Shown one piece after another: positions 33,001 through 39,000 of a DNA stretch of 40,501 bases (its first letter is position 1; each line of letters begins with the position of its first letter). Position numbers: made by a program. The stretch covers positions 1-40,501 of the forward strand of contig CAJWHW010000017.1 in assembly GCA_913040915.1 (NCBI GenBank). Direction: 5' to 3'. Origin of the DNA: an uncultured Fidelibacterota bacterium (GTDB lineage Bacteria; Fidelibacterota; Marinisomatia; Marinisomatales; UBA1611).

Positions 33001-36000
33001 CCCCCGACACGCGGATTATGATTCCGCTGCTCTAACCAGCTGAGCTACTCCGCCAAAAAAGATAGTAAAAAAGTCCGGAAAATTAATTGGTTAATCCGCA
33101 GGATACCAACGAGAATTCCCTAAAAATATTCTCTTTATAGATTTAAAGTTACCTGTAATTTCCGACGCATTTTTTCAATAATGGAGCAAAATATGTATTC
33201 TTCTATTGAACAATTTATGGAAGGTGTAAAAATGAAAAATGCCGGTGAAAATGAATTTCATCAGGCAGTTTATGAAGTAGTTGAATCACTCTGGGATTTT
33301 TTAAAGGAAAATCCTCATTATCTTCATTCTAGGATATTAGACAGAATGATTGAGCCAGAACGGGTAATACAGTTTCGTGTTCCCTGGCGGAATGATCGGG
33401 GAGATGTGGAAGTAAATCGAGGCTATCGTGTAGAATTTAATTCGGCAATTGGTCCATATAAAGGGGGCTTACGTTTTCATCCTTCTGTGAATCTTTCCAT
33501 TCTCAAATTTCTTGGTTTTGAACAAATATTCAAAAATAGTCTTACCACATTACCCATGGGAGGTGGTAAAGGCGGTTCAGATTTTGATCCTAAGGGTAAA
33601 TCAGATAATGAAGTAATGAGTTTTTGTCAAAGTTTTATGACAGAACTTTGTCGACATATAGGAGCTGATACAGATGTTCCTGCTGGAGATATTGGAGTCG
33701 GCGGACGTGAAATTGGTTATATGTATGGTCAATATAAACGAATCAGAAATGAATTTACAGGCGTACTAACTGGTAAAGGATTGAATTGGGGTGGGTCCTT
33801 GATTCGTCCTGAAGCTACAGGATACGGTTGTGTTTATTTTGCAGAAGAAATGCTGGAGCATAATAATGACAGTTTTGATGGGAAGATTGTGGCAGTTTCC
33901 GGTTCAGGAAACGTGGCTCAGTTTGCTACTGAAAAAGCCACCCAGTTAGGTGCAAAGGTTGTCAGCCTTTCAGATTCATCAGGTTCTATCCATGATAAAG
34001 ATGGAATTGATCGAGACAAATTAGCCTGGGTCATGGATTTAAAGAATAATCGCCGTGGCCGAATCAAGGAATATGCAGATGAGTTTGGTGTTACTTTTAT
34101 GGAAGGGCAACGTCCTTGGTCTATTACCTGTGATATTGCATTACCTTGTGCAACGCAAAATGAGATCAATTTTGATGATGCAAAAACTCTTATTGGCAAC
34201 GGTTGTAAAGCAGTATCTGAAGGTGCGAATATGCCAAGTGATATGGATGCTGTGAATGTCTTCCTTGAAAGTGGTACATTATTTGGCCCTGGCAAGGCAG
34301 CAAATGCCGGAGGTGTAGCCACAAGTGGATTAGAAATGTCCCAGAACAGCATGAAAATAAAATGGTCACGAAATGAAATAGATGAGAAACTTCATACAAT
34401 CATGAAAAATATCCATGAAGCCTGCGTACATCATGGTGGGAATGATAAATTAGTCAACTATGTGAAAGGTGCGAATATTGCCGGATTTATTAAAGTGGCT
34501 GATGCTATGTTAGATCAGGGTGTGGTCTAAATAATTTTTACTGCTTAAATTCCGCTGGATTCTTCTTCATCCATTTTTTCTACATCTTTTTTTCTTGGCT
34601 TTTGAATAATACCCTTACCGGACATACCATCTAATATAACCTTCATATTTGATTCTAGATGGTAATGATCCAAATATTTTGTACTTTCAACTAATGAACT
34701 TTCCTCAAGCCATTCTATATCTAATAGATCATTATTTTGTTTCGAATCAATAGTTAGGTAACCAATGTGCAGACTAGTTATATTTTGAAAAAAGTGACTG
34801 CCAAATGATGGTTCAACCGGTAAATTTTCTCTACCCACTTCAACAATTACTTTTGCTTGAGAAATTTGCCGCCAACTGACTGGAATTCCAAGCCAGGGGT
34901 CTGATGAACCCCATCGTCCCGGTCCACAAAGAATGTATTGTTTGTCAGAATTGAACTTATTATTGATTTTCTCTACTTCATTTGCAATCTCAACTGTTTT
35001 CGCTGGGTCAAATGAATCTTCTCTCACAATTACAATATCCTGTATAGAATTAATTTCTCCGTCTCCCAGTGTTATTTGGCTTTTACAAAAAATTATAGAT
35101 TCATCATTCGTTTCTTTTTGAATATTTCGCAATCCAGTCAAGACCATTGGTTTAATTTGTAATAAATAAAATTCAGGTTTTTGATCAGTGTAAAGATTTA
35201 CAGCAAATTCTATTTCAATCGGGCACCCTAAAGCAGTTTGACCAATGGCTAAAATTCTTTCCATGATATTTGCCAGTCGTATCTTATTCCATTTAAGAAT
35301 GGGTGCAAATGATACAATACGTGTTCCGGGTATTGTCAATGAATCCCTAATTGTATTGTCATCTGATGAAATCACACTGCCTACAGATTTAAATGAGCCG
35401 TCTTCTTCTGCATATTTCAGTGGAAATGCACTGAGGTCTTCTCGTGAACTTTTACGAGAATTAAGATCAATGGCATAAAATTGTACTTGGCTATTTTGTC
35501 TTGATGCTTTTGGAGAGTAAAACTGTGGAATTATAGTAGGGTATTTTGGGGAAATAAAAAGACATTTTTCTCCGTCTACAATTGTTCGGCCAAATCCCAG
35601 TGCTAAATATGCTACTCCTTCATCACGCTTCATATAAGAGACGGGATAATAATTAATGCTTTTTAAGACGCCGCTGATTGTAGGATAAAACCGTTTACTG
35701 GTATAAGGTTTCCCCACAACTTCCTGAATGATTACTGCCATTTTTTCTTCTTCAATTCTATGAGCTGTATTTTGTAGTAATGATTTCGCTTCTCCTTTAA
35801 AGGTAGATGCAAATACCCTTTTTATCGCTATCACTAGCTTAGTCAGCCTGTCTTTGGATGTTTTGGAATTATTTGGAAGCATTATGGTTTCATATGTTCC
35901 TGATAAAGGTTGGTATTGAGAATCTTCCAATAAACTGGATGAACGGACTGCAAGTGGATATGTATGATCATGGATAAATGATTCTAATTTGAGCATCAGA

Positions 36001-39000
36001 TCAACTGATAACCGAGCATTTATAAATTTCTGCTCTAATTTTTCGTAATCAGAATATTCAAGTGCTATTTTCCAGAGCTGGTTATCCTTCATAAAAAAGT
36101 CAAATTCGTTCGTTCCAATTACGGCGCAGTGTGGAACCCGAATCACTGTATCTTTAAATTCGTTTTGAATTTCTGAATATTTTATCATTGATCTTGCAAA
36201 AGCTAAACCTCTTGCTTTCCCACCTAAAGAACCACCGCATAGTCTGAAAAAATCAAGTTTTTCTTTATTAAATCGTGCTGATGTATAATCCATTACCCTC
36301 GAATCAGGTTCATTCTGTTTTGCTTGCATACATTCCAATAAATAATCTCTTAAGAGTTCACCAGTCTCAAATTGATGGACAAAAACAGGTCTGAGCTTTG
36401 ATGCGAGTTCAAATTCTGTGCGGGCAGCAAGCCAATTTGAAAAATGATGGCTTTTTGCATGATAAACTACCGATTCCACCGGAATTTTTTTAAGGCACTG
36501 AATGAATTCATCAATATTGGATGCAGAATCAACAGTAGTATTATCTGATAGGCGGAAAATAAAATCTCCAAATCCGAAATTTTCGATGATAAATGATCTC
36601 AGGTCAGTTAGAAGTGTATGAGAACCTTTATGTAGAAATGCAGCATCAACTTTTTCTGCCAATTTACTATTTTTCAAATCAGTGGACTGTAACATAATCG
36701 GGATCGATGGATCCACGGAACGTACCCATTTTGCAAATTTCAGTCCCGCTATTGGATCATTAATACCTTTTTTAGGAAAACGAATATCTGAAATAACACC
36801 GATTGTATTGTTTTTATATTTGCGTATGAACTTCTGGGCAGTTTCAAAATTGGGAGTTAACAATATTTTTGGGCGACCACGTAGATGCATTAATTTTTTT
36901 GACTGACTTAAACCACGATTAACCAAATTTTTGGTTTGGTACATAATCTCTTTATAAATCATTGGTAAAAGAACTGAATACATCCTTGGAGAATCTTCTA
37001 ATAATAGGATGGACCGAACATCTCCATTGCAGATATCTTCTTCTGCATTTTTTCTGTCTTCAACATACTTAATAATTGCAGGAAAAACAATTGCATCGCC
37101 AGACCAGATAAATACACGATTAATTGATTTTGGCGTGATAGTTTCAGGAAGTTGTTTCAATTCAGATTCATCGAATGCTAAGAGAATAACCGGTTTTTTA
37201 GGATATCGTTCCTTAATTGCGGTTCCTAAAGTGATTGGGTTCTGATCTGCTATACGTAGCATAACGATAATAAGATCATATTGTTTTTCACTCATCGCTT
37301 TCAGTGCTTCAATTCCAGTTGATACTCTTGTTACCCGAGGAGCATAATTAAAATTCATGCCGATATATTCGGACAATATTTGTTCAGTTAAATGCCCATC
37401 TTCTTCAAGAATAAAAGCATCATAAGGGCTAGCCACCAATAGAATTTCGTGAACACGATGGGCCATAAGATCCTGAAAATCGAATTTGGATTTATTCCCA
37501 ACAAAAAAATCAGCCATAGTCAAAATTACCGAGCTTAATGAGAAAAAGGAATATCCAACTAATCTGTCTTGGAATGTATTTCTTAATCCATTTAATTTTA
37601 TAATTATAAAATGTCTGTTTATATATTTTTCCGGAACTGAAATCTTCAGTATATGATTTTATAAGTTTACTTTTTTTAAGAGGTATTTAGCTTCTCAGTA
37701 AAGTTATTTCCAATTAACAGATTCAATTTCTAATCAATTTGGTGAATTAATGTTACAAAGTGCAGTGAAAACCAAAATATACGGGTTATGCTTTAATTAC
37801 TATAAAAATGGATTCTTTAAAGATATTGTTAAATACTGTTAGAGATGATATAAGCAGGATTAGTGGATTGTTCTGAGAATCAATAAATCTTTAAGGCTTC
37901 CGGTTTGGAATAAGATAATAAAAAGAGTAAAATACAGTAGCTTACAGGCAACCATAAACCCTGATGAAAGGTTAGAGAATATGAAAATAGTATTTAGGAC
38001 TATGGAAAATATCGGAGGAAAAATAATTGGTATTTTGGATGTTATTTTAACTCCCTTTTCAACTATTTCACCCATAGCAACAGATATTAAGAAAGCTATT
38101 GATGAAAAAGTGAATACACTCGTTGTTGCAATTCCTATAGAGTCAGATAATGATACGTACCTTAAAAGCGTTTGATCTCAAAAGAAAAGTCATTTTAATT
38201 CGGGTGGATTTTAATGTTCCGTTAGAAGGTGAAAATATTGCAAATAATTTCAGGATCAAATCTGCTCTGCCCACTATAAATACCTGTTTGGATGCAGGAG
38301 CATCGGTGGTTTTAATGTCCCATTTAGGCCGTCCAAATGGTCAGGTAGATTCAAATTTAAGTTTAATATCTGTTGGTGAAGAATTAGCGGGTTTATTGGA
38401 ATTACCGATAAAATTTTCTGAAGATTGTGTTTCTAATGATGCACTAGATACATCCCTTTCCCTTAAGCCAGGCGAAATTCATCTTTTAGAAAATCTTCGA
38501 TTTCATGCAGGTGAAAAATCCAATGATTTGGAATTTGCATCCAGACTTGCACGCCATGGGCAAATATATATTAATGATGCCTTCGGAACTGCCCATAGAG
38601 CTCATGCTTCTAATGTAGGTGTAACATCTCACTATAAACATGCTGGAATAGGCTGGCTTATGGATAAAGAGCTCAATTTTCTCCAAAGATTTATGAAACG
38701 ACCAAATCGGCCACTTACTCTTATTCTTGGCGGAGCAAAAATTGGAACTAAACTTGAATTGATTAATCATTTCATCGAAAAAGCAGATCACATTATAATT
38801 GGTGGGGGTATGGCATTTACTTTTTTAAAGGCGCGTGGTAAAGAAGTCGGTGGATCTCTTATTCAATCATCTATGATTTCAATGGCAAAAAATATTTTAA
38901 ATAGAGCTAGAAAAGAAAGTGTACGTATTCATCTTCCTGAAGATGTTTTATGTGGAAGAAGTCTAAAGGACACTAAACCATTTGGAGCTTATAAGGTTAA

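Follow-up and report, generated by a model that had tools for sequence, protein, structure and literature searches.

A widespread, receiver-bearing probable kinase of dikinase type, linked to glutamate dehydrogenase and probably tuning its action

The window analysed here is a stretch of 40,501 nucleotides (contig CAJWHW010000017.1) from an uncultured Fidelibacterota bacterium, in which a gene for glutamate dehydrogenase (GDH) faces the gene for a multidomain protein, P0001, that carries the database label "PEP synthase" (Table 1). The reading frame of P0001, which opens at an ATG, has been checked, and its domain order is as the survey's finding had it: a degenerate receiver, an intact receiver, an ATP-grasp domain and a tail with His908, with Asp244, Ser278 and Lys297 also at the positions first given for them. 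The database label is a misannotation. P0001 has no PEP/pyruvate-binding barrel, and the sole PF02896 match in the source genome is a separate, complete PPDK; the protein is therefore not a PEP synthase, as the survey had also held. Homologues are plentiful (7917 of 8000 scored candidates). The gdh gene lies where it had been placed, but its frame opens at 33181, the start named earlier (33193) being the second Met and an alternative. Its product exceeds the NADP-specific cut-off of PRK09414, and it is the single tblastn match in the source genome (85% complete), where no other gdh was found. No terminator-like hairpin was found in the gap between the two genes, promoter and terminator scans of the window gave matches at chance level, and in two metatranscriptome contig sets only 5-8% of sampled words and a few exact 151-nt pieces were matched.

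Table 1. Features of the gdh/P0001 locus, in window coordinates
Feature	Coordinates	Strand	Basis or remark
gdh, NADP-type hexameric glutamate dehydrogenase, 449 aa	33181..34530	+	PRK09414 771.6 bits vs cut-off 536; proposed target
Gap between convergent stop codons, 14 bp	34531..34544	.	stop codons of gdh and P0001 facing
Receiver-dikinase protein P0001, 990 aa	34545..37517	-	full model pLDDT 86.5, pTM 0.71
Pseudo-receiver, residues about 21-158	37044..37457	-	Pfam, NtrC1 alignment; fold; column counts
Intact receiver, residues about 167-316	36570..37019	-	E174, D175, D244, S278, K297
Asp244 codon, candidate phospho-acceptor	36786..36788	-	position checked; 103/115
DUF5752 (OrfY-like) domain, residues 327-397	36327..36539	-	PF19027 E 4.9e-6
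ATP-grasp domain, PEP synthase/RPH type, residues 430-798	35124..36230	-	PF01326 E 1e-33; Z 26.6 to 5hv1
Predicted C-terminal swivel-type domain, residues about 806-975	34593..35102	-	structure model; GPGRWG loop, His908 at helix start
His908 codon, candidate phospho-histidine	34794..34796	-	113/115

Pfam recognizes Response_reg (39-116), DUF5752 (327-397) and PPDK_N (430-798) in P0001, with no match to PEP-utilizers_C and none, at E<=0.1, to HisKA, HATPase_c (GHKL) or HPt domains; the four HATPase_c matches of the source genome all lie away from this gene. Conservation was counted over 115 full-length sequences, i.e., the query and 114 of 150 representatives at 50% clustering, the 36 others falling outside 940-1060 aa. 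The first receiver does not have the residue set of a working receiver (acidic pair, phospho-Asp, Ser/Thr, Lys): Met86 stands at the Asp position, where Met occurs in 63 of the 115 and Asp is absent from the four commonest residues, and the conserved Lys is missing. Its fold is matched by the PorX receiver (Z 14.9), and it has a conserved set of its own (Tyr32, Asp33, Trp138, Gly140, Glu153 and Asp154, with Trp138 kept in 112 of 115) that is a candidate ligand or docking site. The second receiver carries the full set on a receiver fold (against Spo0F, Z 15.8, rmsd 1.9, 116 residues aligned), Glu174 being kept in 110 sequences, Asp175 in 99, Ser278 in 106 and Lys297 in 109. This pairing recalls the PleD-type regulators, which also place one live and one degenerate receiver before an enzyme domain, and PleD is among the Foldseek matches of P0001, although here the order is reversed (degenerate first) and the output is a dikinase-type module. 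The DUF5752 region shows a weak profile match to OrfY (4cso, E 0.038). Its Pfam match is near threshold even in the window protein, and the domain had no match in the Bacteroides thetaiotaomicron control genome.

The ATP-grasp domain contains the Lys/Arg/Glu/Gln/Arg catalytic set of PEP synthase and PPDK. Lys434, Arg525 and Gln787 are kept in all 115 sequences, Glu770 in 114 and Thr544 in 107, while the last Arg of the set, found in 110 of the 115, is Lys789 in P0001. Arg525 and Thr544 align with Arg117 and Thr136 of rifampin phosphotransferase (RPH), and mutation of these RPH residues is reported to block the enzyme (PMC4844700). His908 is the most conserved His of the protein and comes close to the invariance first claimed for it, a claim that Asp244 does not bear out (103 of 115). 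Nor is the motif GSHFFQN around His908 kept throughout, as had been stated: the exact form occurs in only 26 of 115 sequences and G[ST]HFF[QH]N in 87. P0001 ends 82 residues past His908, and in 108 of the 115 sequences 62-127 residues follow the motif. The tail is modelled (pLDDT 88.5) as a domain that most resembles phospho-His swivel domains, with Z values of 5.7-6.9 that agree well with the figures obtained earlier; such domains make up seven of the top eight matches among 48,161 chains searched, the third-ranked being a non-phospho DRTGG domain (Z 6.6). ATP-grasp domain and tail align together, as a single alignment each, with PEP synthase (2ols 4-467; Z 25.7, rmsd 4.9, 368 aligned) and PPDK (1dik 9-510; Z 18.5), and the model is consistent with a tail docked at the place of the phospho-His domain. 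Around His908, the secondary structure and the sequence in which the motifs follow one another resemble those of the genome's own PPDK, with a strand at +11 versus +10 and then a closing DG/NG turn. A tail profile against the PDB gave an unrelated best match (E 0.09), Pfam gave none on 118 tails (no PF00391), Foldseek with the tail none at E<=0.001, and hhalign against the genome's PPDK swivel, taken alone or as a 3-sequence profile that is too shallow, a probability under 1%. The swivel fold is thus predicted solely by structure comparison, at middling Z values. P0001 very likely forms phospho-His on this predicted swivel domain.

Among known proteins, PEP synthase (PpsA, 2ols) and PPDK (1dik) share with P0001 an ATP-grasp domain followed directly by a domain of swivel type, predicted in the case of P0001, and differ from it in having the barrel. 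The closest ATP-grasp folds are those of RPH (5hv1, 5fbs; PMC4844700) and HpeI (9goj), which have a C-terminal His swivel such as is predicted for P0001. P0001 differs from RPH in lacking a rifampin-binding domain between ATP-grasp and swivel (no RIF_Ptrans_rph match; the tail follows directly) and in having N-terminal receivers instead. The best model for how P0001 might work is VadK (Rv1127c of Mycobacterium tuberculosis), described as a barrel-less dikinase with ATP-grasp and His-swivel domains that autophosphorylates, can regulate enzymes encoded beside it and has a regulatory, not PEP-forming, role (PMC13400623). VadK is a truncated PPDK of about 50 kDa with no receiver, and its gene adjoins those of the methylcitrate cycle, whose enzymes are its presumed targets, whereas P0001 combines a core of PEPS/RPH type with a putative swivel that has diverged beyond detection by sequence, two receivers and DUF5752, and has gdh as its recurrent neighbour. 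Desulfovibrio DVU0246 and G20 locus 0604 (PMC4001038), compared here by description only, are annotated with PPDK_N and a mobile domain and have no barrel entry; they differ in their canonical swivel signature, a separate receiver and the absence of gdh from the cluster as listed, which holds a kinase, a receiver and a phosphatase and has a fitness effect on nitrate.

The association with gdh extends well beyond the window. The survey described the pair as fixed tail-to-tail, and this is true near the query, where gdh lies within 1.5 kb in 21 of 30 Marinisomatota loci (window included) and all 21 are convergent, but not across phyla, where 57 adjacent pairs comprise 28 convergent, 27 co-directional and 2 divergent ones. 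Among 78 GTDB loci, which span many phyla and include one from an archaeon, 51 have gdh within 6 kb; some of the other 27 are ended by contig edges. No other neighbour family occurs in more than 6 of these loci, and a scan of 46 further recurrent neighbour families, out of 61 listed, turned up no methylcitrate enzyme. The family is present in 130 of 151 Marinisomatota genomes, and its other hosts include Acidobacteriota, Ignavibacteriota, Bacteroidota, Myxococcota, Gemmatimonadota, Thermodesulfobacteriota and an archaeon. All seven small genomes of family f3 have GDH but not the receiver-dikinase protein. A comparison of partnered and unpartnered GDHs (57 versus 8 sequences, the 8 mostly from one divergent genus) gave 12 candidate columns and was dropped, the main residues being present also in solved unpartnered GDHs.

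In paralogues that are receiver-less or 770 aa long, the ATP-grasp domain, the GPGRWG loop and the His motif are all retained. These paralogues lie behind genes of another GDH class, which shares about 33% identity with the GDH of the window; in a FastTree phylogeny, all eight members of one clade (support 99) adjoin that class, as compared to none of the 23 in its sister clade. Some members carry one to four sensor-like module repeats at the N-terminus. Some paralogues bear a nucleotidyltransferase domain, and most of what an atlas search with the N-terminus of the paralogue brought up was its own clusters, alongside a weak lead to GAF. Since the gdh linkage persists in receiver-less paralogues beside another GDH class, the receivers look like swappable inputs and not the output, and, the repeats being considered as well, the N-terminal part behaves as an exchangeable input to a dikinase core that is the output. 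For this reason, of the two roles first offered, a relay or a kinase acting on nitrogen assimilation, the kinase fits better, and a self-contained relay is less well supported as the core function. "Assimilation" is itself too narrow, as the tightest neighbour in Bacteroidales is a GDH named NAD-specific. A tie of the family to GDH and the 2-oxoglutarate/glutamate node is supported.

The GDH of Bacteroides undergoes reversible ammonia-triggered inactivation, for which a Bacteroides member of the family is a candidate factor. BT1972 of B. thetaiotaomicron, near two gdh genes, is a likely orthologue of P0001 as judged by its 990 codons and gene position, not by sequence. In 523 experiments it has exactly two cofitness partners at r of at least 0.8, korB (0.824) and korA (0.817) (PMC8121099, Table S3), BT1970 and BT1973 not being among them. 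As korAB correlate at about 0.92 with general amino-acid biosynthesis genes (PMC8121099), the signal could reflect no more than a mildly auxotroph-like profile; polarity is an unlikely cause, given that BT1972 has its own start site and terminator (PMC7366714). The gene lies downstream of the BT1970 gdh with catalase alone between (PMC7366714), a position that matches the title of a 1996 paper by Baggio and Morrison, "trans-acting gene(s) downstream of gdhA", and makes BT1972 a named candidate for that factor of GDH activity. The link of this likely orthologue to the korAB cofitness and the 1996 title is new here. In B. fragilis P207 grown in deoxycholate, loss of the adjacent gdh scored +0.8 to +1.25 and loss of the homologue about 0 (-0.11 to +0.08), so the homologue is not a required activator of that GDH. 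BT1972 is not in the tables of PMC10528517, BT1970-BT1973 were not found in the main texts of the literature searched, and searches on reversible inactivation of Bacteroides GDH, OrfY/TreT and Prevotella gdhA found nothing relevant.

With moderate confidence, we favour the view that P0001 is a sensor-gated, dikinase-derived phospho-histidine kinase acting on the GDH protein, one that would work like VadK without being a VadK; what enters into it is the architecture of the protein with its residues and fold, the linkage of the genes and their co-occurrence, and the cofitness published for the likely orthologue. The ATP-grasp domain would bind Mg-ATP and load a phosphate onto His908, and this step is strongly indicated. 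As with PEP synthase and RPH, the phosphate loaded is probably the beta-phosphate, so that AMP and Pi would be released. The block of pseudo-receiver, receiver and DUF5752 may gate the loading, either because a donor outside the protein phosphorylates Asp244, or because a metabolite binds at the conserved site of the pseudo-receiver, or both. Most tentatively, the tail could then swing out and either pass its phosphate to GDH or form a complex with GDH that depends on phosphorylation, much as has been suggested for VadK and methylcitrate synthase. The supply of 2-oxoglutarate and glutamate would thereby be kept adequate when cells have to make their own amino acids.

A self-contained His-to-Asp relay, in which the phosphate of His908 moves to Asp244 within one protein and the N-terminal block, once phosphorylated, serves as the output by binding GDH, is an unlikely alternative despite a receiver pocket intact in about 90% of the 115 sequences. 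A histidine kinase is nowhere a conserved neighbour at the 78 loci (a PAS-containing family is near 4), the source genome has four other receiver proteins and two HisKA kinases to serve them, and the swivel is described as serving a third domain of the same chain in RPH, PEPS and PPDK (PMC4844700), all of which would suit a relay. One of those kinases, however, has no adjoining receiver gene in the stretch examined, the model is consistent with docking of the tail on the ATP-grasp domain and silent on a second docking site, and the His and the gdh link outlive the receivers in the paralogues. We consider it decidedly unlikely that P0001 works on a small molecule at the 2-oxoglutarate/glutamate node, as a phosphotransferase or ligase that is under receiver control and has its substrate site in the N-terminal block. 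Its closest folds and profiles are indeed small-molecule dikinases (RPH, HpeI of HpeHI, PigC/RedH), conserved polar residues outside the receiver pocket (Tyr32, Trp138, Glu153, Ser181, Arg215) could bind a substrate, and the korAB cofitness would suit a metabolic step. No substrate domain is common to all subfamilies, however, the paralogues sort by GDH class, the N-terminal repeats are typical of signalling proteins, and BT_1972 changed little (log2 -0.07 and 0.15) in two contrasts in which the two gdh genes moved oppositely.

That the target is instead KorAB, the 2-oxoglutarate:ferredoxin oxidoreductase, or some other enzyme at this node, with the gdh linkage reflecting shared regulation, seems distinctly improbable. 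The cofitness of BT1972 points that way, and 2-oxoacid:ferredoxin oxidoreductase genes lie near paralogues at three loci (L112, L113, L114), but no KorA-like gene occurs in the 78 GTDB loci. Across the 151 Marinisomatota genomes the presence of the protein tracks GDH rather than KorA, the latter counted at E<=1e-60 with one query that distant forms could escape: genome family f15 has the protein in 0/6, GDH in 0/6 and KorA in 5/6, f21 has them in 25/26 (two weak), 22/26 and 0/26, and G137 agrees. Least probable of all, and very slight, is inherited synteny or co-transfer of gdh without direct functional coupling, since, even if related genomes are non-independent, the partner distance correlation (r 0.69, 56 pairs) lacks a control gene and has been set aside as support for coupling, and the sorting of paralogues could stem from a single ancestral tandem locus, the linkage holds in three orientations, across intervening genes, with two GDH classes and beyond deep splits among the paralogues, and the BT1972 mutant profile points to the same metabolic node.

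GDH is a junction enzyme of carbon and nitrogen metabolism, and no dedicated kinase-type controller of the bacterial hexameric enzyme was found in the literature searched; the "PEP synthase" label, for its part, can mislead metabolic models. The likely B. thetaiotaomicron orthologue can be spared well enough for a mutant profile to have been measured, and such published data from a gut bacterium make the idea of GDH control directly testable. Bolder, and on the doubtful side, is the proposal of a third route to two-component-style signalling, in which a PEP-synthase-derived dikinase replaces the GHKL kinase, uses the swivel His to phosphorylate the GDH hexamer as well as the Asp of its own receiver, and is the 1996 "trans-acting gene downstream of gdhA". 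If true, this would give bacterial GDH a post-translational switch of its own, a counterpart of the GlnE system for glutamine synthetase, the nucleotidyltransferase-bearing paralogues included. Together with VadK, P0001 suggests that dikinase-derived histidine kinases form a broad class, of which this family is probably a widespread, signal-controlled member that travels with glutamate dehydrogenase and tunes it.

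P0001, the 990-aa receiver-dikinase protein of the window, is encoded by an ORF whose stop codon lies 14 bp from that of gdh, and this gdh is the sole copy found in the genome, which is 85% complete. Homologues that carry organism names put the genome within the Marinimicrobia. Every NCBIfam model scored below its own cut-off against P0001; the Pfam domains are listed in the table. An AlphaFold2 model of the full-length protein, built from 77 sequences (pLDDT 86.5, pTM 0.71), includes two stretches that resemble receivers on structure comparison, residues 167-316 (Z 15.8, rmsd 1.9) and residues 21-158 (Z 14.9). 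Residues were counted in 115 full-length sequences, i.e., P0001 and 114 of 150 representatives, the 36 of other lengths having been dropped. The second receiver (residues 167-316) retains E174 (110), D175 (99), D244 (103), S278 (106) and K297 (109), with S181 and R215 also conserved. In the first (residues 21-158), Met replaces the phospho-acceptor Asp in 63/115 and Trp138 is present in 112/115, yet Y32, D33, G140, E153 and D154 are conserved; it is a pseudo-receiver held under constraint by a different function. The survey's finding had placed D244, S278, K297 and H908 in P0001, and the sequence bears these positions out. DUF5752 is weakly similar to archaeal OrfY (4cso, E 0.038), which we take to be a partner of the enzyme TreT, so by analogy this domain would be a candidate enzyme-docking module; a literature search gave no paper on the OrfY/TreT partnership. 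In the ATP-grasp domain, K434, R525 and Q787 are invariant in the 115 sequences, E770 is kept in 114 and T544 in 107; K434 and E770 were identified by motif comparison with the PPDK of this genome. Position 789 is Arg in 110/115 and Lys in P0001. The counterparts of R525 and T544 in rifampin phosphotransferase are Arg117 and Thr136, which that enzyme requires for activity (PMC4844700).

Coordinates of genes, domains and neighbouring features (window positions unless a locus or residues are named)
Feature	Position	Strand	Basis or content
gdh	33181-34530	+	ORF; NADP-type by PRK09414
P0001, 990-aa ORF	34545-37517	-	ORF
Response_reg	P0001 residues 39-116	-	Pfam
DUF5752	P0001 residues 327-397 (36327-36539)	-	Pfam
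PPDK_N	P0001 residues 430-798	-	Pfam
~1070-aa paralogue	L109:10541-13750	+	
~1070-aa paralogue	L115:3963-7145	-	
~1070-aa paralogue	L041:9804-13133	-	
tRNA-Met gene	32980-33054	-	
ComF-like remnant	37828-38172	+	46% over 115 aa
Four Fn3, Ig-like, PKD proteins	21282-30715	+	
Two GDH classes with P0001 homologues	L114:4882-14332		
Glutamate synthase gene group	L128:2-12714		contig C2 of the same genome

That P0001 is not a PEP synthase, as the survey had proposed, stands: 62-127 residues follow the His motif in 108/115 sequences, lengths that by our count leave no room for a barrel, and the only barrel in the genome belongs to a separate, complete PPDK. His908 is the best-conserved His (113/115), followed by H353 (101/115). 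When the tail was folded alone from 118 sequences (pLDDT 88.5) and compared with 48,161 chains, seven of the eight top matches were phospho-His-type swivel domains, namely pyruvate kinase C-terminal (Z 6.9), RPH (6.7), PPDK (6.4 and 6.0), Enzyme I (6.1 and 5.8) and EI-Ntr (5.7), values (5.7-6.9) that fall in the comparison tool's ambiguous range; the third-ranked match was a DRTGG domain (6.6). None of the sequence methods tried supported the swivel link. His908 starts a helix, with a strand at +11 and a DG turn later; His480 of the genome's PPDK likewise starts a helix, with its strand at +10 and an NG turn. The ATP-grasp domain and tail of the full model also align together, in a single alignment, with residues 4-467 of PEP synthase (Z 25.7, rmsd 4.9, 368 aligned) and with 9-510 of PPDK (Z 18.5). 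This order of helix, strand and turn and the joint alignment favour a swivel identity for the modelled tail. A canonical swivel protein is present in 60 of 61 sampled genomes.

Matches to P0001 (E<=0.001), a few of them weak or divergent paralogues, occur in 130 of 151 Marinisomatota genomes. A gdh lies within 1.5 kb of the homologue, always convergent, in 21 of the 30 best Marinisomatota loci including the window; among the loci without a nearby gdh, some end at contig edges and several are truly apart. A wider set of 78 GTDB loci spans many phyla and includes one archaeon; gdh lies within 6 kb in 51 of them, and the next commonest neighbour families reach 6 loci at most. The pair had been described as fixed tail-to-tail, which proved too strict: 28 of 57 adjacent pairs are convergent, 27 co-directional and 2 divergent, and the link is therefore to gdh and not to orientation. 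At the family level the P0001 family follows GDH, as counted in related and partly incomplete genomes: group f21 has the P0001 family in 25/26 (two weak), GDH in 22/26 and KorA in 0/26 at E<=1e-60, group f15 has 0/6, 0/6 and 5/6, respectively, and genome G137 has KorA and lacks both of the others. Seven small f3 genomes keep GDH with no P0001 homologue, so GDH does not need one. Comparison of the GDHs revealed no residues specific to P0001-partnered enzymes.

Several neighbourhoods may be recorded here. A Hermodarchaeota archaeon (L089, G154) has two full-length homologues, one divergent from gdh. In L114 two GDH classes each lie tail-to-tail with their own full-length homologue, adjoining alanine dehydrogenase, CoA transferase and 2-oxoacid:ferredoxin oxidoreductase. 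In the window, a 1.3-kb AT-rich stretch with a single 104-aa ORF precedes the tRNA-Met gene just upstream of gdh. The remnant of a phosphoribosyltransferase-domain, ComF-like gene may have decayed, since no ORF of 100 aa was called there; the gene is intact at the same place in L031-L033. Four probably secreted proteins, one ending in a C-terminal caspase-type domain, lie between the ribosomal-protein region and a ROK kinase. Elsewhere in the genome, L128 groups glutamate synthase, an ammonium transporter, PII, PEP carboxylase, two GAPDH-family ORFs and a 336-aa glutamine synthetase.

The paralogues include a receiver-less form of ~580 aa, a 770-aa form and, coupled to the first, a ~1070-aa form in which ATP-grasp and His tail stand between a sensor-like module at the N-terminus and a nucleotidyltransferase domain (NTP_transf_2 / Polbeta) at the C-terminus, an arrangement that recalls GlnE/GlnD-type modification. 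They follow a second GDH class, ~33% identical to the window GDH, in six of eight loci examined (L109-L113 and L115, not L041 or L069), and the 1070-aa and 580-aa pair stands behind it in L109-L111 and L115. The G[PF]GRWG loop and His motif are kept in all ten paralogue sequences checked. A 125-aa module, without a Pfam match and looking GAF-like on a weak atlas lead, is common to the ~1070-aa form and to seven long full-length members (P0157, P0199, P0265, P0183, P0260, P0267 and P0268), where it precedes the protein in one to four copies. In a FastTree phylogeny of 143 cores, all members of a clade of 8 (support 99) adjoin the second GDH class; in the sister clade of 23 none does, 13 being next to NADP-type gdh and 10, some with short flanks, having no gdh in view. 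One ancestral tandem locus could alternatively be the source of this sorting.

ATP-grasp, His tail and gdh neighbour are constant while the N-terminus varies, which argues that the receivers would gate the kinase rather than take its output. We give about an even chance to a scheme in which the ATP-grasp domain would load phosphate onto His908, the N-terminal block would gate this loading and the tail would phosphorylate or bind GDH, guarding the supply of 2-oxoglutarate and glutamate. An internal His-to-Asp relay ending at GDH, one form of the survey's self-contained relay or kinase, is unlikely, the receivers being the part that varies. Ranking just below it, and likewise doubtful, is a small-molecule enzyme.

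Homologues in Parabacteroides distasonis and Phocaeicola massiliensis are 38% identical with key residues kept, and both are divergent from one gdh, with a second gdh facing their 3' end 3.5-4 kb away; in a Prevotella record the 7 kb around the homologue are free of gdh. In Bacteroides thetaiotaomicron the order is BT_1970 gdh (+, 1335 bp), catalase (+), BT_1972 (-; 2973 bp, with its own start site and terminator) and BT_1973 gdh (+, divergent) (PMC7366714). This layout matches the other two species, and by length, annotation and synteny BT1972 is likely the P0001 orthologue. BT1970 is presumably gdhA, consistent with its 444 codons and with BT1973 being the gdh named NAD-specific. Downstream of BT1970 come first catalase and then BT1972, both of them candidates for the trans-acting gene or genes that the title of a 1996 paper sets downstream of gdhA. 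The only cofitness partners listed for BT1972 (RB-TnSeq, r>=0.8, 523 experiments) are korB (0.824) and korA (0.817), neither gdh being among them, and korAB and BT1970 each correlate at ~0.9 with amino-acid biosynthesis genes (PMC8121099). We infer from the cofitness that BT1972 mutants run low on 2-oxoglutarate or glutamate when grown in minimal media. Control of KorAB by P0001 is quite improbable, and the want of any functional link between P0001 and gdh more improbable still. B. fragilis P207 carries the homologue PTOS_003162 (2970 bp, PPDK_N and two receiver-fold matches) next to a gdh; neither gene is essential and both are induced (log2 0.75-1.15 for PTOS_003162 and 3.2-4.2 for gdh); in deoxycholate the gdh mutant scores +0.8 to +1.25 and the PTOS_003162 mutant near 0 (PMC10197588), which counts against a simple-activator model.

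In its proposed mode of action P0001 is most like VadK of Mycobacterium tuberculosis (Rv1127c), a barrel-less dikinase that autophosphorylates on His422 and binds enzymes encoded beside it (PMC13400623). It is set apart from VadK, PEP synthase, RPH and the GHKL hybrid kinases, one defining feature failing in each. A further dikinase that apparently has no barrel is encoded in Desulfovibrio DVU0245-DVU0249, a signalling cluster for which a fitness effect with nitrate is recorded (PMC4001038). A literature search whose reach excluded most subscription journals gave no paper on the P0001 family. The family is real, undescribed in the literature searched, and open to testing through BT1972, its likely orthologue in the model organism B. 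thetaiotaomicron.
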